This document shows positions 391 through 55,096 of a stretch of DNA of 64,000 bases, one piece after another. The stretch comes from Armatimonadota bacterium (GTDB lineage Bacteria; Armatimonadota; HRBIN16), in contig OY781964.1 of NCBI GenBank assembly GCA_963677485.1, positions 1 to 64,000 of the forward strand, given 5' to 3'. The position numbers and the translations under genes are program-made. Position 1 is the first letter of the stretch. Every line of letters begins with the position of its first letter. The notes below the pieces were generated by a model. The model was not told the DNA's origin, ran no database searches, and saw only the letters and a program-made list of their open reading frames with translations.

Positions 391-2050
391 TTAGTATCTT
401 ACCAACCATATTTTGAACACGGTGTATAGAATATTCTGATATTACGCACCACACAAAGCGTTAGGCACAACGATCTGGCGAATAGCAAGTGCTGCCATGA
501 TGATACGCTTGCCAAGTGCAGTGAGGTAGTATTTGTAGCGTTTACCGCATTTTTTAACGAGCCGGAATACTCGGCATCGCTTGATGAAGTATGATATCTG
601 AGAGCTGGACATCTGCGGTAAGGCTTTTTGAAGCATACGGTTTGTGATCCCGCTGATGCATCCCTCTCCGCGAGCAAGTGCAATGAGACATTCCAAATCC
701 TTCTTGAGGAAAAGGTTGAATCCTCGATACGAGCGATGATCACGGGTGGTCGAGGTCGCGATTTTGATGATCTGATGTTCACCATCGCTGTTGTCATCAA
801 GGGCGGAAAGAAAGTCAAGATATCTGTTGTTTGCAGATAATAACAGTTCCCTCAATGGAGGAAGGCTGTAGATGGTCTTTTGCATAGGGGCGTATTTAAT
901 CTCAGTCGTCCCATCATGATGTTCTACCTCACGGTAGTGTTTAAATTCAGAGACGTCATTCACAGTCGTCTCGATACGCAAGATTATCCCTTGCTTGTCA
1001 TACATTTTGATAGAAGCCCATCCCATGTAGTGTTTGATGCGCGTGCCTTGTATGCGGCGATCGAACTTGTAGTCAGTGCCGATCTCAGCGAGTGTTCGCC
1101 CATCAAGTTTCTTACCAAGAAACATCGCGATAGACTCTGGCGTTACCGTATGTATCGCTGTTTTGACTAGATTATCGTAGATGGCTTTGAGGTCTTCGGC
1201 GCGTTTGAACACGATGTCTGTAGCATATTCCACCTGCATTAGCGACCAATGATATGAATTGTCAGCAAGCCGTATCACGGGGCAATACATTCTGGCAAAT
1301 GCATCCAGCGCATGGTGCAGCTTATCAGCAGGAAAAGCGTCTGCCAGCCTCTGAGCACAGCTAAAGTCGTCGATTTTTACAAAGGCGTTGTCCAGTGGAG
1401 TGAAAACTACTCCCTCGGATTGAAGGCAATGCGCGAGATAATTGTGTCCATTACAATAGAATTGCAGACGGAAGGGCACCCAGGTCGGAACTCGTAGATA
1501 GCACAGTCCAAACTCTGCATCGATGAAATAGAAGTAGTAATGAAGACACTTGGTCTCCTTGATATTCAGCCGGGTTTTGTGGGTAATCTTGTCGTGCCAC
1601 GGGGTGTATGCAGGACATTTTTCCAACACTGAGAATATGTGGACGAGACCGGGGTGACACCCTCGACTACTAATGATCTCTTTGATGCGGTCTTCTTTTC
1701 GAAATGAAGAGGCACGGCGTATATACTCAATTTCAATGCTGTTGGTAACGGCAAGGCGTTCCGCATTGGCTTTGATCTCATCTCGTAGAGGTTCGGCAAA
1801 TTCCTTAGGAAAGTCAAATAGCCTGATGTTGCGTTGATGAAGATAGATGCCCATTCCGTCGCTATGACACCAGCCTGGGATTGTACCGGTGATAACTATG
1901 CGGTCGAAGCATGAATATACCCCAGCTATCTGCTTTGCATAGCGTTCTTGAAGTGATGTCATTCTGGGCAACCTCACGAAAGGGTGTTTGAATGTATATT
2001 ACGTGGCGAATGCAATCATTCCTTTTTTGGTTGCGGCTAAGCCGCCTTAG
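391..2050 (-). mobile_element. IS-like element, copy 1 (TTAG-bounded, no TIRs)
   Basis: Matches 42861-44520 from ttagtatctt to gccgccttag(g); flanks differ; interrupts a gene. Confidence 0.95.
442..1962 (-). CDS. Putative transposase of an unclassified family with C-terminal winged HTH (type I recall being annotated as MarR regulator)
   Basis: Only long ORF of the repeated element; likely start ATG 1962 after GAGG (track start 1977); motifs FDRIVITG, KCLHYYFY, SIKMYDK-x4-LRIETT, YKYYLT. Confidence 0.8.
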   Translation of the reverse strand: MTSLQERYAKQIAGVYSCFDRIVITGTIPGWCHSDGMGIYLHQRNIRLFDFPKEFAEPLRDEIKANAERLAVTNSIEIEYIRRASSFRKEDRIKEIISSRGCHPGLVHIFSVLEKCPAYTPWHDKITHKTRLNIKETKCLHYYFYFIDAEFGLCYLRVPTWVPFRLQFYCNGHNYLAHCLQSEGVVFTPLDNAFVKIDDFSCAQRLADAFPADKLHHALDAFARMYCPVIRLADNSYHWSLMQVEYATDIVFKRAEDLKAIYDNLVKTAIHTVTPESIAMFLGKKLDGRTLAEIGTDYKFDRRIQGTRIKHYMGWASIKMYDKQGIILRIETTVNDVSEFKHYREVEHHDGTTEIKYAPMQKTIYSLPPLRELLLSANNRYLDFLSALDDNSDGEHQIIKIATSTTRDHRSYRGFNLFLKKDLECLIALARGEGCISGITNRMLQKALPQMSSSQISYFIKRCRVFRLVKKCGKRYKYYLTALGKRIIMAALAIRQIVVPNALCGA

Positions 2051-2956
2051 GATGGCTCAGTTGGCAAATACAGACCCAGCCCTTAAGGATCTATTTGATA
2101 ACAGATTTGACAGTCCGGCAGATAGGGTAGCTAAGATGCAGGCAGGGATGGCAAAAGCTGCTGCTATGGATGCCACAGGTGATAAGGATGGAGCATTATA
2201 TATAAGAACTGCCATTGACTATCTGAAGGGTACTTCTTACGCTACCACAGCTGGTGGAACTTACACTCAGAAGGATAGGCAGATAGATATACAACTGAAG
2301 ACGCTTGATGAAAGGATACGAAATAATAACGCAACTCAGGCAACTCAAGCAGCCAAACTAAAACTTGAAGCTGGCAGACTTGCTGTCGCCGCACAGAATG
2401 CTCAGACCAGCGCCACCAGTGCCAACAATGCTCAGTATTATCGACAACTAAACTATACCCGACAGGTAGCTAACTCACTAAAGATTAGTCTTAGGGGTGA
2501 AACCAAGGATTTGACAACTAAAGAGGTGCTACTTCAGAAACAACTTACAGCTGCTCAAGCTATGGTGGCATTACCGGGTATTGATACAGCTACGAAAGCA
2601 ACTTATCAAGCACAGATTAACTCCTTAACAGCACCAATTGGGAAAGACGGTACAGGCGGAAAACTAACATTAGTGCAATCTAAACTGGCTGCTAACCGAG
2701 AACGAACCACCCAAATAGACCTGCAGTTAGGTACGATGGGTGGGATTGTGGAACCTAAACCTGCGCCTGCATCTACAGGTAGTAAGGATGGTTCTGGTAG
2801 TGGTTCTGGAAAGAAACCTACTAAGGGTAAGGGAGATAAAGGAAGCACTACCACACATACCAGTAATGGCACTGTTACAGTCCAAACACCTTCCACAATG
2901 ACAGATAAAGATAGACAGACTGCAATAGAACAAGGCGACCCAAGGCAGGGAGAGTA

Positions 2957-23246: not shown

Positions 23247-24986
23247 CTAATTCGAGTAGATAACACGTATAGATTCGTCTAAGGTTGTCTGGCCCAGCAA
23301 GATTTTTTTGATACCATCTTCACGCATAGATACCATACCTGCATCCTGAGCGGCTCTACGAATAGCGTGTGTGGGTTCGCGGTGCAAGATCATGTTCCGA
23401 ATTTCTTCTGTCACTGGCATTATTTCAAAGACACCGACTCTGCCTTTATACCCCGTGTTCTTGCACTTAAGACAACCCGCCCCGCGATAGAAAGTCGGGG
23501 TACCGCTCATTTCAGTATCGGTGATTGCCATCCGCTTTAACGAAACCGGATCCGGCTGGTATTCCTGCTTGCACTCCGTGCAGATCGAGCGCAGCAGTCT
23601 TTGCGATACTATACCCAATAAAGAACTGGCGATTAGAAAAGGCTCGACTCCCATATCAATCAAACGGGCGACGGCTCCTGGAGCATCATTTGTATGCAAC
23701 GTGCTGAGCACGAGGTGCCCCGTCAGTGCCGCCTCAACAGCGATAATGGCGGTCTCTCTGTCGCGAATTTCACCCACCATGATCACATCAGGGTCTTGCC
23801 TCATCATGGCCCTGAGTCCGGCTGCAAAGGTCATTTCGGCTTTGGGGTTCACATTCACCTGGGTCAATCCCGGCAGGTCATATTCAACTGGATCCTCAAT
23901 GGTCAGGATGTTGTTTAACCCGGTATTCAAACGGCTTAAAGCACTGTATAAAGTGGTGGATTTTCCTGAGCCGGTGGGTCCCGTCACCAGTATGATTCCG
24001 TATGGTCGACTGATCATCGTCTCGAACATATCCATCGTCTCACGGAGCATGCCTAGTTTATGGAAGTCGACAGATATACTGCCCCGGTCAAGAACACGCA
24101 AGACTATTTTTTCGCCGAATATGGACGGCAGCGAATTGACACGCAAGTCATAGTGTTTGTTATCAACCAAAAGGCTGATACGGCCATCCTGAGGCATCCT
24201 CTTCTCCGCGATATCCATGTTCGCCATGATCTTAATACGGCTGGTCAGACATGCCTGGACTGGACGAGGAACAACCATCATATCGCGCATAATGCCATCG
24301 ACGCGGTAGCGCACCCTGACACCCTCTCGGCCTGGCTCAATATGGATGTCGCTAGCCTTTTCGTGAATTGCATCTGCCAGCAGCAGGTTGCTAAGGCGGA
24401 CAACTGGAGCCACAGCCGACAGCTCACGGAGCTGCTCTATGCTCATGTCGTCTTCCTGGTTTCGCAGGATGTTTTCTACATCAACCGAAGCTTCGTCCAG
24501 TTCCTGGACTACTTCGCTCAGCACATGGCTAACCTTCACCTCTTCCCTGAAGGCATTCGCGATCGCCATCATGATTTCTTCTTCTGTGGCGAAAAGAGGG
24601 TCCACCTCTTTACCTGTGATCAACCGCATCTCATCGGTAGCGAAGATATCAAGCGGGTTGACCATCGCCACAGTCATGCGTTTACCCTCTAGTGATATCG
24701 GCGTGGCTTTATATCGGCGCGAAGCTTGTTGCGAAAGAAGACGCGATATGTCAGGTTCAACATTGACTTTCGCGAGATCGACAAAAGGTATACCCCATGC
24801 ATCCGCCAGCACCATCACACGCTGCCGATCGGTCACCATGCCCATTTCCATAAGCACTTTATCGAGTTCAACGACATTCTGAAGCTGTTGTTGTTTTTCG
24901 ATCGCCAGGGTGAGTTGTTCTTGAGTAATGAGCCCTGCCTTCACGAACAGGTACCCCGGTCGCTGACCCAGAGGTAGTGGATCCAT
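23247..24986 (-). CDS. pilB: Type IV pilus extension ATPase, paralog 2
   Basis: MshEN-like N-terminus, ASDIHIEP, GPTGSGKS, RQDPD, CxxC/CxxC. Confidence 0.93.
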   Translation of the reverse strand: MDPLPLGQRPGYLFVKAGLITQEQLTLAIEKQQQLQNVVELDKVLMEMGMVTDRQRVMVLADAWGIPFVDLAKVNVEPDISRLLSQQASRRYKATPISLEGKRMTVAMVNPLDIFATDEMRLITGKEVDPLFATEEEIMMAIANAFREEVKVSHVLSEVVQELDEASVDVENILRNQEDDMSIEQLRELSAVAPVVRLSNLLLADAIHEKASDIHIEPGREGVRVRYRVDGIMRDMMVVPRPVQACLTSRIKIMANMDIAEKRMPQDGRISLLVDNKHYDLRVNSLPSIFGEKIVLRVLDRGSISVDFHKLGMLRETMDMFETMISRPYGIILVTGPTGSGKSTTLYSALSRLNTGLNNILTIEDPVEYDLPGLTQVNVNPKAEMTFAAGLRAMMRQDPDVIMVGEIRDRETAIIAVEAALTGHLVLSTLHTNDAPGAVARLIDMGVEPFLIASSLLGIVSQRLLRSICTECKQEYQPDPVSLKRMAITDTEMSGTPTFYRGAGCLKCKNTGYKGRVGVFEIMPVTEEIRNMILHREPTHAIRRAAQDAGMVSMREDGIKKILLGQTTLDESIRVIYSN

Positions 24987-25305: not shown

Positions 25306-27045
25306 CTAACTGGAGTAAATCACCCTTATCGATTCCTCAAGGGTCGTCAAACCAAGCAGAATTTTCTTCACGCCGTCATCACGCATCGTCACCATACCCG
25401 CTGCTTTCGCGGCAGCGCGGATGAGGTGCGAAGGCGCCCGTTGAAGTATCAGATTCCGGATCTCATCAGACATTGGCATCAGCTCAAAAACTCCTATACG
25501 CCCCTTGTATCCTGAGTGTTTGCACTTGACGCACCCTGCCCCCCTGTAAAACTTCTGCGAACTATTCACGACCATGTCGTCAATACCTAGTCTCTTCAAA
25601 GACTCCTGATCCGGTGTATACTCCTCTTTGCACTCACTGCATATCGATCGAAGCAGACGCTGGGAGACCACGCCCAGTAGTGAACTGGCGATCAGGAACG
25701 GCTCTACGCCCATATCGATCATACGTGCGATCGCTCCCGGCGCATCGTTGGTGTGTAGCGTACTTAGCACAAGATGGCCCGTGAGAGCTGCTTCCACCGC
25801 GATGACCGCGGTCTCTTTGTCGCGGATCTCGCCCACCATGATCACATCGGGGTCCTGACGCATCATGGCACGAAGACCCGCAGCAAATGTCATCTCGGCT
25901 TTGGTGTTCACATTCACTTGTGTCAAACCGGGCAGGTCATACTCAATAGGGTCCTCGATGGTGAGGATGTTATTTAGCCCGCTATTTAATCGGCTCAAGG
26001 CACTATAAAGAGTTGTAGACTTCCCCGACCCAGTTGGACCAGTGACAAGGATGAAACCGTAAGGGTGACCGATCATCTTCTCGAACATCATCATGGTTTC
26101 GTTCAGCATACCCAGCTTATTGAAATCGACAGAGATGCTGGTCCTATCCAAAACACGCATCACGATCTTCTCACCAAACAACGATGGAAGGCTGTTGACA
26201 CGAAGATCGTAGTGCTTTCCATCTACCACCAGGCTAATGCGGCCGTCTTGCGGCTGACGTTTTTCGGCGATGTCCATATTCGCCATGATTTTGATACGGC
26301 TGGTAAGGCAGGCCTGCACGGGACGAGGAACCAGCATCATATCGCGCATCATGCCATCCACACGGTAGCGTACGCGTACGTTTTCCCTGCCTGGCTCTAT
26401 GTGGATATCGCTGGCCTTTTCGCGGATAGCATCGGCTAGCAGTAAATTACTCAAGCGGACTACCGGTGCTACGCCCGACAGCTCACGCAGCTGCTCCACG
26501 CTCATCTCATCGTCGGGATCAGACAGGTTTTCATCAAGACTTACTGCCGCTTCGTCGAGTTCCTGCACGACCTCGCTCAGCACATGGCTCACTGGAATCT
26601 GTTCACGATAGATGCTGGCTATTGTTGCCAGTATTTCTTCTTCAGTTCCATACACTGCGTCGATATACCGGCCAGTGACCCGCTGCATCTCATCGGTAGC
26701 ATATACATTCAGAGGGTTAACCATCGCCACGGTTAACTTCATTCCATCGAGTTGAACAGGAACTGCCTTATACCTGCGGCAAACCTGTTGTGGCAGCATT
26801 TTGGCCGTTTCAGGCTCTACATTGATCTTGGTCAGATCGATATAGGGCACGTTCCAGGATTCCGCAACCACAGCCACACGCTGCTGGTCTGTCATCATAC
26901 CCATCTCAATCATGACTTTGTCAAGATCAAGCATGTAGGGCAGATTTTTCTGCTTTTCTATCGCAAGTAATAGTTGCTCTTCAGTGACTAATCCTGCTTT
27001 GACAAACAGTTGACCTGGTTTTTCAACAGATGGTTGTGATGCCAA
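25306..27045 (-). CDS. pilB: Type IV pilus extension ATPase, paralog 1
   Basis: Same motifs and same length (579 aa) as 23247..24986. Confidence 0.93.
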   Translation of the reverse strand: MASQPSVEKPGQLFVKAGLVTEEQLLLAIEKQKNLPYMLDLDKVMIEMGMMTDQQRVAVVAESWNVPYIDLTKINVEPETAKMLPQQVCRRYKAVPVQLDGMKLTVAMVNPLNVYATDEMQRVTGRYIDAVYGTEEEILATIASIYREQIPVSHVLSEVVQELDEAAVSLDENLSDPDDEMSVEQLRELSGVAPVVRLSNLLLADAIREKASDIHIEPGRENVRVRYRVDGMMRDMMLVPRPVQACLTSRIKIMANMDIAEKRQPQDGRISLVVDGKHYDLRVNSLPSLFGEKIVMRVLDRTSISVDFNKLGMLNETMMMFEKMIGHPYGFILVTGPTGSGKSTTLYSALSRLNSGLNNILTIEDPIEYDLPGLTQVNVNTKAEMTFAAGLRAMMRQDPDVIMVGEIRDKETAVIAVEAALTGHLVLSTLHTNDAPGAIARMIDMGVEPFLIASSLLGVVSQRLLRSICSECKEEYTPDQESLKRLGIDDMVVNSSQKFYRGAGCVKCKHSGYKGRIGVFELMPMSDEIRNLILQRAPSHLIRAAAKAAGMVTMRDDGVKKILLGLTTLEESIRVIYSS

Positions 27046-42860: not shown

Positions 42861-44520
42861 TTAGTATCTTACCAACCATATTTTGAACACGGTGTATAGA
42901 ATATTCTGATATTACGCACCACACAAAGCGTTAGGCACAACGATCTGGCGAATAGCAAGTGCTGCCATGATGATACGCTTGCCAAGTGCAGTGAGGTAGT
43001 ATTTGTAGCGTTTACCGCATTTTTTAACGAGCCGGAATACTCGGCATCGCTTGATGAAGTATGATATCTGAGAGCTGGACATCTGCGGTAAGGCTTTTTG
43101 AAGCATACGGTTTGTGATCCCGCTGATGCATCCCTCTCCGCGAGCAAGTGCAATGAGACATTCCAAATCCTTCTTGAGGAAAAGGTTGAATCCTCGATAC
43201 GAGCGATGATCACGGGTGGTCGAGGTCGCGATTTTGATGATCTGATGTTCACCATCGCTGTTGTCATCAAGGGCGGAAAGAAAGTCAAGATATCTGTTGT
43301 TTGCAGATAATAACAGTTCCCTCAATGGAGGAAGGCTGTAGATGGTCTTTTGCATAGGGGCGTATTTAATCTCAGTCGTCCCATCATGATGTTCTACCTC
43401 ACGGTAGTGTTTAAATTCAGAGACGTCATTCACAGTCGTCTCGATACGCAAGATTATCCCTTGCTTGTCATACATTTTGATAGAAGCCCATCCCATGTAG
43501 TGTTTGATGCGCGTGCCTTGTATGCGGCGATCGAACTTGTAGTCAGTGCCGATCTCAGCGAGTGTTCGCCCATCAAGTTTCTTACCAAGAAACATCGCGA
43601 TAGACTCTGGCGTTACCGTATGTATCGCTGTTTTGACTAGATTATCGTAGATGGCTTTGAGGTCTTCGGCGCGTTTGAACACGATGTCTGTAGCATATTC
43701 CACCTGCATTAGCGACCAATGATATGAATTGTCAGCAAGCCGTATCACGGGGCAATACATTCTGGCAAATGCATCCAGCGCATGGTGCAGCTTATCAGCA
43801 GGAAAAGCGTCTGCCAGCCTCTGAGCACAGCTAAAGTCGTCGATTTTTACAAAGGCGTTGTCCAGTGGAGTGAAAACTACTCCCTCGGATTGAAGGCAAT
43901 GCGCGAGATAATTGTGTCCATTACAATAGAATTGCAGACGGAAGGGCACCCAGGTCGGAACTCGTAGATAGCACAGTCCAAACTCTGCATCGATGAAATA
44001 GAAGTAGTAATGAAGACACTTGGTCTCCTTGATATTCAGCCGGGTTTTGTGGGTAATCTTGTCGTGCCACGGGGTGTATGCAGGACATTTTTCCAACACT
44101 GAGAATATGTGGACGAGACCGGGGTGACACCCTCGACTACTAATGATCTCTTTGATGCGGTCTTCTTTTCGAAATGAAGAGGCACGGCGTATATACTCAA
44201 TTTCAATGCTGTTGGTAACGGCAAGGCGTTCCGCATTGGCTTTGATCTCATCTCGTAGAGGTTCGGCAAATTCCTTAGGAAAGTCAAATAGCCTGATGTT
44301 GCGTTGATGAAGATAGATGCCCATTCCGTCGCTATGACACCAGCCTGGGATTGTACCGGTGATAACTATGCGGTCGAAGCATGAATATACCCCAGCTATC
44401 TGCTTTGCATAGCGTTCTTGAAGTGATGTCATTCTGGGCAACCTCACGAAAGGGTGTTTGAATGTATATTACGTGGCGAATGCAATCATTCCTTTTTTGG
44501 TTGCGGCTAAGCCGCCTTAG
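42861..44520 (-). mobile_element. IS-like element, copy 2
   Basis: Matches 391-2050 at offset 42470; translations identical in all listed frames. Confidence 0.95.
42912..44432 (-). CDS. Putative transposase of an unclassified family, copy 2
   Basis: Protein identical to 442..1962 (track start 44447). Confidence 0.8.
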   Translation of the reverse strand: MTSLQERYAKQIAGVYSCFDRIVITGTIPGWCHSDGMGIYLHQRNIRLFDFPKEFAEPLRDEIKANAERLAVTNSIEIEYIRRASSFRKEDRIKEIISSRGCHPGLVHIFSVLEKCPAYTPWHDKITHKTRLNIKETKCLHYYFYFIDAEFGLCYLRVPTWVPFRLQFYCNGHNYLAHCLQSEGVVFTPLDNAFVKIDDFSCAQRLADAFPADKLHHALDAFARMYCPVIRLADNSYHWSLMQVEYATDIVFKRAEDLKAIYDNLVKTAIHTVTPESIAMFLGKKLDGRTLAEIGTDYKFDRRIQGTRIKHYMGWASIKMYDKQGIILRIETTVNDVSEFKHYREVEHHDGTTEIKYAPMQKTIYSLPPLRELLLSANNRYLDFLSALDDNSDGEHQIIKIATSTTRDHRSYRGFNLFLKKDLECLIALARGEGCISGITNRMLQKALPQMSSSQISYFIKRCRVFRLVKKCGKRYKYYLTALGKRIIMAALAIRQIVVPNALCGA

Positions 44521-45829
44521 GTTCTTCTTGAGCAATATCCCAAATGTGGTGCCCTTCTTGACCTTAACATCTTGACCAGTCGCGGCCTTGTGCTGTGTGG
44601 TGCTGTATGCATATCCAGCCACCGCACCGATCAGGGTGCCAACCAGCGGCTTCTTCCATCCAAGCTGCCCGGCTATCAGTCCGGCACCAGCACCGATGGC
44701 GATGAACTTCGCAGGGTTACGGTTTGCACTGACTGTGCCCACCAGTCTGCCAGACTTGGAGTCTGTCCTGACGCTCTTCTTATCAAGCAATGTCAACTGT
44801 CCGCTGATAGATTTCGAACTGCCGTATGGCGGCTTGATTCCGATAAATCGAACACTGATCTGGCCAGCGGTGTGTTTCGTCGCTTTGGTCACAGAGGCGA
44901 CTTTGCCAGTAAACTTTGAGCCTTCGGGAATCCCGCCACCACCATTACCTTCGTAATGTGCGTAGAACAGATCGCCCACGTGGTTTTTGGCTGAACTGAT
45001 CTGAGTATCCATCTTAACAGGTATGACCGTGCCTTTTGGTATGGTCGTGCTCGCTGATACGGAGATGGCGAAAGCCATCAACAGTGCGGATTGCAGGTAT
45101 CTCATGTGAACTTGCATAGTATCACTCTTTCTTATTCGATTGTCTGAATACTTAACCAGCATGATGCTGGCCGTGCACTTCGCCCGGCGGTTGTCGGATG
45201 TCATCGTAATATCGAATGCATTGTCCGCATGGATGTCGGTCGTGTGCCCTATATAGCGTGCAGGATTTCCCTGTCATACTGTTCTAAAGTCACCCTCTTC
45301 TGCTACATCAACATGCTAGTGTTGCCTGTATGAAGGGGTCTTAGTTGCCAACATCGGTTCGGTCTCGATTGTCGTTCATCTCTCTTGCAGGATGCCTACG
45401 GTGAGGAATTCCTGCCTTGTAACCTATTATACCCATACCAGAACATATAAATGTTCGTTTTTCTAACAGCATTTCATTTGCATATACTGTCAATTCTACT
45501 AGGTTTGGAGTGGATGCAGTGGCTTGAGCCGTGGATGGTGTGTCTTTGTGTGTCAGTATCGCGGCCGAGGCATCAAGTCAGACCGTGGCTCGATCTTGTA
45601 TAGGTAAAATTACCATGTCACTTACGACGCCGGTCTGTGCCTCGACACAGTTGGTGTTATTAAACGAGCCACCACCGGGCCCGACAGTGTCGCATGCCTG
45701 CTCCGAAGTGGGGCGAAATGCCGGTTGCCAAATCCGCCGAGGCATGAGTGTCTCGGTTATTGATCAACAATCCCTCATCGCGACCTTCGCGTCTTCGAGT
45801 GCGACGTTCCATGGCCTCGGCGCACAGCT

Positions 45830-50589: not shown

Positions 50590-51390
50590 CTACAGCACGA
50601 ACATGAAGAACCGCAGCACCTCAAACCAGTCGGTGGTGTGGAACATCACCTTCCGTGTGCCTTCGAGTCGGGCACCCGGGTAGTAGGAACGGCTATAAGC
50701 CACTTCATGGTTGCGGAACATCACCTCCACATCGAAGGTATCTGGCAGCTCCAGCAGGCATTTGCTGACGTCGGCTGAGAGCGCTTGCTTCACGCCGTCC
50801 GCAATTTGGCGGATGCTCAGCCTGGGATGCTGGGCGATCGAGGCGGCTCCCACGCCTTCACTGACCGCCACGGTGGTGATGTGCGGGATGAGCCGTTTAG
50901 CTTCCGTGCAAATCTGTTTATCTCCGCTGAGGAACACCAGTGGAACGCCGAACATCGCGGCGGTATGGGCACCGATCATCGTCTCGCTGCAATCATAACC
51001 GTTCAATTTCACATGCACATTTTGTGAATTCATCGTGTGCGACATCGGGTTGCCGCTCCAGCCAGCCGCCGCATGATAGCCAATCAGCATCGCCGCATGA
51101 AAGCTGCTGTCCAGACCCGCCATCATGGAATACGGGTCACGCGTCCAGCCACGCATGAGCTGCGCCTGCTCCGGCAACTCGGCGGCATCGATGTTCCTGG
51201 CAGTGCCGTGTGCGTCCTTCACGAACAACGCGTCGGCTCCGGCTGCCAGTGCCGCAGTGCAGGCACTTTTGACCTCCTGGGTCATTTGGTCGGCGAATTT
51301 CGGGTAGTGCTGGTTGTCTTTCTCCGTTTCGGCCCACGCGACGATGCCGGTGGTGCCCTCGATGTCGGCGCTGATGTATACTTTGTTCAT
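50590..51390 (-). CDS. dppA: M55-family D-aminopeptidase
   Basis: YISADIEG, DAH, GYH, SHT, LSGD motifs. Confidence 0.9.
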   Translation of the reverse strand: MNKVYISADIEGTTGIVAWAETEKDNQHYPKFADQMTQEVKSACTAALAAGADALFVKDAHGTARNIDAAELPEQAQLMRGWTRDPYSMMAGLDSSFHAAMLIGYHAAAGWSGNPMSHTMNSQNVHVKLNGYDCSETMIGAHTAAMFGVPLVFLSGDKQICTEAKRLIPHITTVAVSEGVGAASIAQHPRLSIRQIADGVKQALSADVSKCLLELPDTFDVEVMFRNHEVAYSRSYYPGARLEGTRKVMFHTTDWFEVLRFFMFVL

Positions 51391-52536: not shown

Positions 52537-53360
52537 GACTCCAACTCCGGGTATAACACGAAGGAGAAGAAGCGAAGCAACTCACCCATATCTGAGGTGC
52601 AAAACCTCACCGTGCGGGAGCCATCCAACGAGGCGCCCGGATAGAACGAACGGCGATAGGCCACATGATGAACTTTGAACATGATCTCCACATCAAACTG
52701 ACTGGGCAAATCCACCATGCATGCGCTGAGATCACCCTGCAAAGCTACGTAGGCCGCCAGCTCCACCTGCTGAAGTAAACCCGCAGGAGAAGACGAAACT
52801 GTGGCACCGCCAAGCCCGTGCTTGAGCGCCACGGTGTGGATGTTGGCATTCAACCGCTTGGCACTCTCGCAAAGCTGATGGTCGCCGCTCACAAACACCA
52901 GCGGCACCGAGTAATATGAGGCGGTATAGGCCGCGATCACGCACTCGCTAACCTCTTCACCGTTGATCTTCACGTGAACACAACTGTCGTTCATGGTGTG
53001 GGACATCGGGTTGCCAGCCCATCCCGCTGCCGAATGGTAGCCCACCAGCATGGCGGCGTCGAAGCTGCTGTCAAGCATCGCCATCATGGCGTTCGGTTCA
53101 CCGGTCCAGCCACGGACCAGACGGGCCTCTTCGGGCAACTGTTGGAAGTAGATATTGCGCGCGGTGTGGTGGCCGTCACGCACTAACAGATCGGTGGCTC
53201 CGGCTTTCAATGCACCCAGGCACGCCGCACGCACATGCTGTGTCATCACATCTGCAAAATACTGGTAGTGCGGTGTTTCGATATTTGCCTCGGGCCAGCG
53301 CACCACGCCCGGTAGCCCTTCGAAATCCGCTGAGATATATATTTTCATAACTGTCCTCAC
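52530..53360 (-). CDS. dppA: M55-family D-aminopeptidase, second paralog
   Basis: YISADFEG, DGH, GYH, SHT, VSGD. Confidence 0.9.
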   Translation of the reverse strand: MRTVMKIYISADFEGLPGVVRWPEANIETPHYQYFADVMTQHVRAACLGALKAGATDLLVRDGHHTARNIYFQQLPEEARLVRGWTGEPNAMMAMLDSSFDAAMLVGYHSAAGWAGNPMSHTMNDSCVHVKINGEEVSECVIAAYTASYYSVPLVFVSGDHQLCESAKRLNANIHTVALKHGLGGATVSSSPAGLLQQVELAAYVALQGDLSACMVDLPSQFDVEIMFKVHHVAYRRSFYPGASLDGSRTVRFCTSDMGELLRFFSFVLYPELESC

Positions 53361-54751: not shown

Positions 54752-54828
54752 GGTTGATGCCTCCTAAGGCGGATTTTTGTGGGTGTGACAACCTTAGGAT
54801 ACCTTATACACCATGATCGTGTGTAGTG

Positions 54829-55061
54829 ATTCACTCACACGGAGACGCGGAGGGCGCGGAGGGGATTGTCCGAACCACGGATTACGCGGATTGATGGGAT
54901 GACACGGATGGAGAGGGAGAGGGACGGGAATGCCTGCACCTTATCCTCTCCATCCGAACCTATCCGTGTCATCTGTGTAGTCCGTGGTTCAGACAAAGAG
55001 CCTGCAGGTCAAACACACACCATCTCCCCTCCGCGACCTCCGCGTCTCCGCGTGAGTGAAT
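54829..55061. repeat. Nested two-family palindrome (~230 bp)
   Basis: attcactcacacggagacgcggagg/cctccgcgtctccgcgtgagtgaat outer; tgtccgaaccacgga...gacacggat/atccgtgtc...tccgtggttcagaca inner. Confidence 0.8.
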
Positions 55062-55096
55062 CCCTTGGGTTTTATGCTATGGTGACTAGTGAAAAG

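Follow-up and report, generated by a model that had tools for sequence, protein, structure and literature searches.

The window analysed here, the first 64,000 nucleotides of contig OY781964.1 from an Armatimonadota bacterium (assembly GCA_963677485.1), contains two copies of a 1,656-bp insertion sequence (IS), at 395-2050 (copy 1) and 42865-44520 (copy 2), both on the minus strand and identical letter for letter. The element has a single open reading frame (ORF; 442-1962 on the minus strand in copy 1) for a putative tyrosine transposase of 506 aa, in which residues 1-390 are predicted to form a double five-strand sheet resembling those of TBP and the Rep_trans proteins, and residues 390-506 a MarR-like winged helix. 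It occurs at 20 further places in the genome, which is one contig of 5,220,040 bp. The 22 copies are 99-100% identical, and a scripted search for the element's ends, with up to 3 mismatches allowed, returned 22 right ends and 22 left ends and detected no solo ends or extended copies in this genome. Left and right are used here as they apply to copy 1 on the plus strand; the ends of relatives are given in the orientation of the ORF, in which TTAG reads CTAA.

Positions 391-2051 are repeated base for base at 42861-44521, over 1,661 nt. The repeat starts at the T of a TTAG (left extension 0), ends in TTAGG and has its first mismatch at 2052; the two copies lie in the contexts a-TTAG...TTAGG-a and g-TTAG...TTAGG-t. 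At the right end of copy 1, upstream of the ORF, there is a subterminal hairpin, GCGGC-TAA-GCCGC (2033-2045, both strands), with an AACCAA box (2027-2032, minus strand; TTGGTT on the plus strand) directly 3' of it in ORF orientation. On the outer side of the hairpin are a one-base linker, C (2046), the element-borne terminal TTAG (2047-2050, plus strand) and the flanking G of the target (2051, plus strand; 44521 in copy 2, also plus). The ORF-distal end carries the terminal motif ..TTGTTCAAAATATGGTTGGTAAGATA (ORF orientation; 395-430, minus strand) and adjoins a target-derived TTAG (391-394, plus strand; 42861-42864 in copy 2, also plus). No terminal inverted repeats were found in the element. 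The sequence statements of the original prediction, which had been made from this stretch alone and which included the hairpin, linker, TTAG and G at 2033-2051, all proved correct when the window was read and the two copies were compared.

When all 22 genomic copies and their targets were listed, the right junction was found to be ..GCCGCC-TTAG followed by G in every case, and the next base is never C. On the left, where the junction is TTAG^TATCTTAC, 17 copies have TTAG as the tetranucleotide, 4 have ATAG and 1 has TTAA. The final four bases of the element are the right TTAG, and on the left the tetranucleotide comes from the target; because the five copies with unequal tetranucleotides are otherwise identical, there is no target duplication. 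For the copy at 2411324, an unoccupied paralogous site was located 5 kb away. It reads ..CAAGACCGGCGCGGTTAG/GGAAAACCGCCCCGG.., as against ..GCGCGGTTAG[IS]GTAAAACCGCCCCGG.. at the occupied site (in a shorter rendering, ..GCGCGGTTAG/GGAAAACC and ..GCGCGGTTAG[IS]GTAAAACC); the insertion therefore adds 1,656 bp and the G, which this register needs as flank, belongs to the target. Insertion is directly 3' of a TTAG in the target with G as the next base (TTAG^G) and duplicates nothing, and the preference for TTAG is far beyond chance. The strict TTAG(G) target choice of the original prediction, drawn from two sites, is thus borne out; its treatment of the two TTAGs as equivalent and duplication-like is corrected by the larger set, in which the left one varies and the right one is fixed. 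A search of 31 related genomes for an empty site, using the left flank of one of the ATAG copies (L017), gave, apart from the element's own genome, only short partial matches in two genomes, and the element is present at about 99% identity, without the L017 flanks, in three metagenomes.

The element belongs to a large IS family that we did not find described or annotated. Its 506-aa protein, which we infer to be the transposase, has no match to Pfam families at E<=1, to IS models of NCBIfam or in PHROGs, and no named neighbours in the ESM Atlas (best score 0.81), and a sequence search of the PDB with the family profile gave weak MarR matches only. In the literature we found no Rep_trans-like or TBP-fold transposase and no IS with these ends; subscription journals were thinly covered, and an earlier description under another name is possible. 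Relatives made up 7,998 of 8,000 scored candidates, and there were 6,547 clusters at 50% identity with E<=0.001, 659 of them reaching 1e-30. In contigs sampled at one genome per species, 252 of 286 candidate stretches encode a relative. The phyla represented include Chloroflexota, Nitrospirota, Acidobacteriota, Planctomycetota, Pseudomonadota (several classes), Bacillota and others. Fifteen plasmid records match, with the protein annotated as an ArsR-family regulator or hypothetical; among the 120 matches listed, the relatives are 469-532 aa long, lie mostly on contigs of 1.6-3 kb and are named hypothetical or MarR-family. Many relatives are on contigs of 1.6-2.3 kb that begin or end at CCTAA, and at L030, L040, L078 and L085 contigs of other genomes were seen to start exactly at CCTAA. 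The elements thus break short-read assemblies at their boundary, and their copy number in metagenome-assembled genomes may be hidden as a result.

The relatives have the same asymmetric junctions as the genome of the window. The element-borne tetranucleotide (n=55) is CTAA in 44 and CCAA in 11, and the base before it is C in 52 of 54 distinct related 5' flanks; the target-side tetranucleotide (n=52) is CTAA in 44, CTAC in 3, CTAT in 2, CTAG in 2 and CTGC in 1. In 15 of the 46 relatives for which both ends could be read, the two tetranucleotides are unequal. An ordinary cut-and-paste IS making a 4-bp duplication of a preferred TTAG would account for the 17 of 22 copies with TTAG on both sides and for the empty paralogous site with its one TTAG. 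Such an element is refuted by the five otherwise identical copies whose flanking tetranucleotides differ, unless all five left tetranucleotides arose by later point mutation with the elements unchanged elsewhere, which is very unlikely. The 15 unequal relatives, among them an entire group that has CCAA at one end but CTAA at the other, also speak against it. The lack of terminal inverted repeats and of any match to a DDE or other transposase family argues in the same direction, and we regard this explanation as highly improbable.

Conservation of the ends was studied in an alignment (A3) of 55 related 5' ends, 49 of its rows being distinct. Pairing in the hairpin stem is at 92.7%, with two of the pairs contributing 8 doubly changed cells; none of 500 shuffles reached either the pairing or the covariation observed, and controls in which the stem was slid gave 3.7-38%. 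The outer stem pair is C:G in 43, G:C in 4 and U:A in 1, and the next pair C:G in 46 and U:A in 3. The linker between hairpin and tetranucleotide is 1 nt in all 55 ends (C, G or T), and the invariant columns are C1, A3, A4, G9, A13-C16 and A20-C22; the AACCAA box, nearly invariant, is columns 19-24. Across phyla this end reads C followed by CTAA-N-CCGGC-NNA-GCCGG-AACCAAACAGG. When the 71-nt end was folded alone, its stability was not unusual (z -0.84 and -1.35). Because the stem is conserved across relatives with compensatory changes, the hairpin can be taken as real and conserved as a structure, and the adjoining AACCAA box is, on the same alignment, conserved as sequence. The subterminal hairpin of the original prediction is therefore a family feature. 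The ORF-distal motif keeps its position in 52 related elements, with the consensus ..TTTTGCGCAcGATCTcActgGTAAGrGA abutting CTAA.

More distant branches, at 22-25% protein identity, retain the layout with a hairpin of different sequence and length and still use NTAG. The Burkholderia sp. YI23 relative (22% identity) has CTAA-C-GAGGC-TCC-GCCTC as its end. In three copies on a plasmid of Mycobacterium riyadhense one side reads CTAG, CTAG or TTAG, and the opposite side has an 11-bp hairpin with compensatory changes (CCGCCGCCGGG versus CCACTTCCGGG), then C-GTAG.

These comparisons bear on the proposal of the original prediction that the hairpin carries the complement of the target, and that a guide in or beside it, as in IS200/IS605 elements, picks the tetranucleotide by base pairing and could let the target be reprogrammed. 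The complements on which the proposal rested are present in the window copy: CTAAG (2037-2041) can pair with the terminal CTTAG (2046-2050), and TGGTTG (2028-2033) with CAACCA (403-408, plus strand) near the other end, which would close a stem across a circle junction. Neither is conserved in the family. The first pairing stands at 46.9% in the family versus 46.6% in shuffled sequences, 196 of 500 shuffles being as high. The loops of relatives include GTA, ATA, CGA, GGA, GAA, AAA, TAA, TGA, CAA, AGA and ACAAG, and the tetranucleotide nevertheless stays CTAA or CCAA; the TTA loop that makes the complement was found only in the window's element among the 55 aligned ends. Elements whose own tetranucleotide is CCAA still adjoin CTAA targets. 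At neither end does any column covary with the T or C of the element-borne tetranucleotide (best mutual information 0.129 bit over 51 columns, matched by 40 of 500 shuffles). As for the cross-end stem, a 6-nt complement is reached by 5% of shuffles in the window element, a complement of at least 6 nt occurs in 5 of 46 related elements, and when the box beside the hairpin is compared with the final 30 nt at the far end, the longest complement averages 4.02 nt in the family versus 3.94 nt in shuffles. The branches with unrelated hairpins, still using NTAG, also speak against a reprogrammable guide.

All of these tests were for Watson-Crick pairing, and non-canonical pairing is invisible to sequence tests when the target hardly varies. 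The guides of IS200/IS605 use partly non-canonical pairs, which Watson-Crick tests miss, and this counts in favour of a guide, as does the resemblance to those elements in layout: nothing is duplicated, one tetranucleotide lies in the flank and the other in the element, and the hairpin is subterminal. Even so, we consider a base-pairing guide very unlikely, and both complementarities of the window copy are, in our judgement, coincidences. It is probably the protein that recognises the tetranucleotide, and not a changeable guide in the DNA. Of the original prediction, a hairpin-dependent reaction of single-strand type is plausible; the programmable guide, which at first was its most exciting aspect, is unsupported.

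A number of related elements show further arrangements at their ends. At three loci (L043, 140-190; L099, about 1380-1420; L104, about 960-990) a remnant of 20-40 nt directly precedes a complete element; the remnants resemble the ORF-distal end of another copy (..GTAAGGGA, ..GTAAGAGA and ..GTAAGTA, respectively) and are joined to the element via a single CTAA. A 3'-end motif joined via one CTAA to a hairpin end is seen in three natural sequences, L043, L099 and the first Burkholderia copy. Such junctions can be read in one of two ways: either the target-side CTAA of a resident element was reused as a target, giving head-to-tail insertion, or junction forms or their relics exist. The idea of a promoter made by the junction was dropped, since promoter scans of the element and of the end-to-end junction that occurs naturally in L043 gave nothing above shuffles. 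Short tandem repeats containing the target word adjoin elements downstream of L036 and in the flanks of L065 and L069, for example (GTACCTAA)n after L036, a pattern which suggests that CTAA-rich repeats attract insertions. An inverted repeat between the untranslated leader and the 3' end was also considered and rejected (mean z 0.55); among 46 elements only one, an Armatimonadota element (L042, 1399-1500), stands out. At a distance of 12 nt after the hairpin, its leader carries hairpin-G-TTAG and 24 nt of the element's far end in inverted form, a perfect match of 28 nt (z 17.4) that is unique among the 46.

The fold of the protein was examined in two confident AlphaFold (AF2) models, with predicted local distance difference test (pLDDT) scores of 93.9 (full-length chain) and 90.8 (residues 1-390 alone). 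In residues 390-506 the structural similarity is to winged helices of the MarR/HxlR type, with Z about 10. Because structural searches with the whole model were swamped by this winged helix, the N-terminal domain was folded alone and residues 1-390 were compared with 48,161 structure chains. Seven matches span the domain (residues 2-390, Z >7), with Z values that are middling by the tool's own notes: five are TBPs (Z 8.7, 8.2, 8.1, 7.4 and 7.1) and two are Rep_trans proteins, RepDE (4cwc_A; Z 7.4, root mean square deviation 5.5, 180 aligned) and RepSTK1 (4cij_A; Z 7.2, root mean square deviation 4.7, 189 aligned). The next-best match, at Z 6.0, covers half a domain. Foldseek placed 4cij first for the whole model (E 2.6e-4, probability 0.97); for the N-terminal domain it listed 4cij beside unrelated sheet proteins (GlyRS, HMG-CoA reductase) with low TM scores, and this result was given little weight.

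The conserved residues of the family fall in an order known from Rep_trans. In alignment A1 the invariant residues are D20, R21, Y143, Y145, E245, K319, Y321, R329 and E331, and the motifs D20, Q243-x-E245-x-A247-x-D249, K319-x-Y321-D322-K323 and R329-x-E331 all lie on predicted strands and are invariant or nearly so. Nine true Rep_trans proteins from the same phylum (found in 7 of 301 genomes; alignment A4) have invariant R-x-D-x-A-x-D, the Y of R-I-Y-D-K, and R-x-E. The order D, acidic-x-A-x-D, basic-x-Y-D-K, R-x-E is the same in both families, the motifs having been matched by eye. RepDE and RepSTK1 are described as having a TBP-like sheet whose ten strands form two modules of five, and RepDE has Tyr191 on strand 10 flanked by R189 and K193, R212/E214 on strand 11, R140/D142/A144/D146 on strand 6 and D46 as third metal ligand (PMC4797284). 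Rep_trans enzymes act at a hairpin and form a 5'-phosphotyrosine link (PMC4797284, PMC6499999). Judged from the model, residues 1-390 are, we infer, a distant relative of the Rep_trans rolling-circle initiators and relaxases, which are tyrosine nucleases with a TBP-like sheet. By the motif correspondence Y321 of K-x-Y-D-K is the likely nucleophile, and D20, E245/D249 and E331 are the likely metal ligands.

Comparison with known systems places the element close to several of them in layout and apart from each in its enzyme. Like IS200/IS605 elements (IS608, ISDra2; HUH Y1 TnpA), it is small, has no terminal inverted repeats, makes no target duplication and inserts 3' of a fixed tetranucleotide; one cleavage site would lie in the flank and the other would be the element's last four bases, with a subterminal hairpin close by. 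On this the original prediction was right, as it was in supposing an enzyme unrelated to the HUH transposases: the 506-aa protein has a TBP-like sheet and a winged helix, no Pfam match and no HUH/Y1 (Y1_Tnp) domain. Unlike IS200/IS605, the element has a hairpin detected at one end only, no Watson-Crick guide pairing was found, its replication-strand bias is weak (15 of 22 copies), and its target is constant across the family and not member-specific. With IS91/ISCR and the Helitrons (HUH Y2) it shares tetranucleotide-specific insertion without duplication, asymmetric ends and a hairpin a few bases inside one terminus; Helitrons end in CTRR after a hairpin. It differs from them in having no HUH Y2 domain or helicase and in that its hairpin end is upstream of the ORF, and it offers one candidate one-ended product, a single case from Burkholderia.

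The protein resembles Rep_trans (PF02486: pT181-family RepC/RepD/RepDE, RepSTK1, CTXphi RstA and the MOB_T relaxases of integrative and conjugative elements) in whole-domain fold and motif order. Unlike Rep_trans, it has no profile-level similarity to that family, its domain is about 390 aa with large helical insertions versus about 200-270 aa, and its predicted cut would be 5-6 nt outside the stem, not in the loop. Known members of Rep_trans replicate plasmids or phages or transfer integrative and conjugative elements, and in the literature found none is reported as an IS transposase. The rolling-circle initiator Rep-Arvir/DUF7845, of archaeal viruses and plasmids, likewise has a winged helix after a TBP-like catalytic domain of about 300 aa at its N-terminus and has been linked to Rep_trans through structure only; it is a replication protein of archaeal plasmids and viruses, unlike the multi-copy chromosomal insertion studied here (PMC13107129). 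Its model, PF25227, does not match the 506-aa protein in the Pfam scan at E<=1. In short, the defining enzyme of IS200/IS605, of IS91 and of the Helitrons is lacking in this element, and the Rep_trans profile does not detect its protein.

A further explanation of the junctions is double-strand site-specific recombination between a circular or donor junction carrying TTAG and a TTAG core in the target, IS110-type or recombinase-like, with the hairpin acting as a duplex palindrome for a winged-helix dimer. MarR-like domains usually bind palindromic duplex DNA as dimers, and a palindrome beside the crossover point fits with the C-terminal MarR-like domain. The same tetranucleotide at both junctions in most copies, the weak replication-strand bias and the natural 3'-end-CTAA-5'-end junction in L043 also agree with recombination. 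The mismatches do not: all 5 mismatched copies differ on the left, at position 1 or 4 of the core, and are TTAG on the right, and because exchange of a 4-bp core should spread mismatches to both junctions or be blocked by them, this one-sidedness argues against it. From branch to branch the stem changes freely in sequence and length (5 bp, GAGGC; 11 bp, CCACTTCCGGG) but keeps its position, which is better explained by recognition of structure than by base-specific reading of a duplex. In its catalytic domain the protein is similar to single-strand nickases and not to DEDD, serine or tyrosine recombinases. IS110/IS1111 elements combine a DEDD transposase with a non-coding guide RNA (bridge or seek RNA) that sets a member-specific target; here there is no DEDD domain, no Rfam match in the element (300-2150, E<=1) and the same target in all members. 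Recombination of this kind is an unlikely account, though a more credible one than either a guide or cut-and-paste transposition.

The best explanation of the element, which we favour with moderate confidence, is that it represents a new IS family, mobilised by a tyrosine nuclease of Rep_trans-like type whose catalysis is predicted. Such a nuclease would nick one strand at both tetranucleotides (TTAG^ on the plus strand, equivalently ^CTAA on the ORF strand). The single strand would be released or copied, would close on one tetranucleotide, with a circle junction of the form ..GTAAGATA-CTAA-GGCGGC.., and would be joined into a new TTAG^G site. The hairpin would position the cut, as at Rep_trans origins and at the ends of IS200/IS605 and Helitrons, and the C-terminal winged helix is the putative binder of the element ends.

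A related arrangement was found on plasmid byi_1p of Burkholderia sp. YI23, where two distant-relative copies (L115, 1588 onward; L116, 1500 onward; also L117/L118) share 7,458 bp. The shared stretch starts exactly at the CTAA-hairpin, runs about 5 kb past the ORF-distal end and has no recognisable terminus where it stops. Rolling-circle elements yield one-ended products, and this repeat may be such a read-through product, with the hairpin end as origin and the terminator missed.

Several results weigh against movement by a Rep_trans-like nuclease. The link to Rep_trans rests, in the model, on middling structural scores and on motifs aligned by eye, and the TBPs score as high. The PF02486 profile has no match in the whole genome, though a control genome responds, and alignment of A2 with the Rep_trans alignment A4 by hhalign gave a probability of 0.3 and an E of 0.2. 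At the ORF-distal end no consistent hairpin and no inverted repeat with the other end were detected, no dedicated hairpin model having been built. No excision joint or circle junction was found when contigs of four public runs were compared with L017:1004-3700, and contigs cannot show rare forms. The Burkholderia repeat is a single case and could be an ordinary segmental duplication ending at the IS. With the minimum of cumulative GC skew near 2.14 Mb and its maximum near 4.74 Mb, the TTAG^ strand is on the lagging-strand template in 15 of 22 copies (two-sided binomial p ~0.13), and by local skew the count is 11-14 of 22. Were the mechanism strictly single-strand and fork-dependent, as for IS608, a stronger orientation bias would be expected.

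Copy 1 is flanked on the plus strand by ORFs at 3-416 and 2052-2957. Since these are in the same frame class and the 1,656-bp insert is divisible by three, they look like one long gene of a phage-like region that was interrupted by the insertion; PHROGs gave no match for either half. The window also contains repeats unrelated to the IS. Between 45771 and 55065 there is a 40-nt repeat family (TCCCTC.TCGCGACCTTCGCGTCTTCG.GTGAGA..) with five direct copies and one 41-nt inverted pair, 54825-54865 and 55025-55065. Diverged tandem duplications of 63-77% identity were found at 23247-24674 versus 25306-26733 and at 51029-51252 versus 52990-53213, with spacings of 2,059 and 1,961 nt; these are probably paralogous neighbouring genes.

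The classification of transposons follows the chemistry of the transposase (DDE, DEDD, HUH, serine, tyrosine recombinase and Cas1), and it would gain a class with a Rep_trans-like enzyme. In the abstract of the Replitron preprint, only HUH groups are named as transposons mobilised by Rep proteins (10.1101/2022.12.15.520654). The present elements appear, on structural modelling of the enzyme, to be a widespread, unannotated IS family whose transposase is of a structural class not known from transposons. Whether they amount to a new class of prokaryotic transposon, with a Rep_trans-type (TBP-fold) tyrosine nuclease as a second, non-HUH lineage of rolling-circle initiators domesticated for transposition, we judge to be an evenly balanced question. 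If they do, elements of this class have spread through most bacterial phyla while annotated as MarR or ArsR regulators or as hypothetical proteins, and their compact enzyme would nick and join single-strand DNA in a sequence-specific way (hairpin plus TTAG^G). A target of 4-5 nt and a hairpin read by a covalent nickase could serve as a tool for DNA-protein tagging or insertion. Because the family is large, breaks assemblies and is annotated as regulator or hypothetical, naming it would improve the annotation of genomes and metagenomes.

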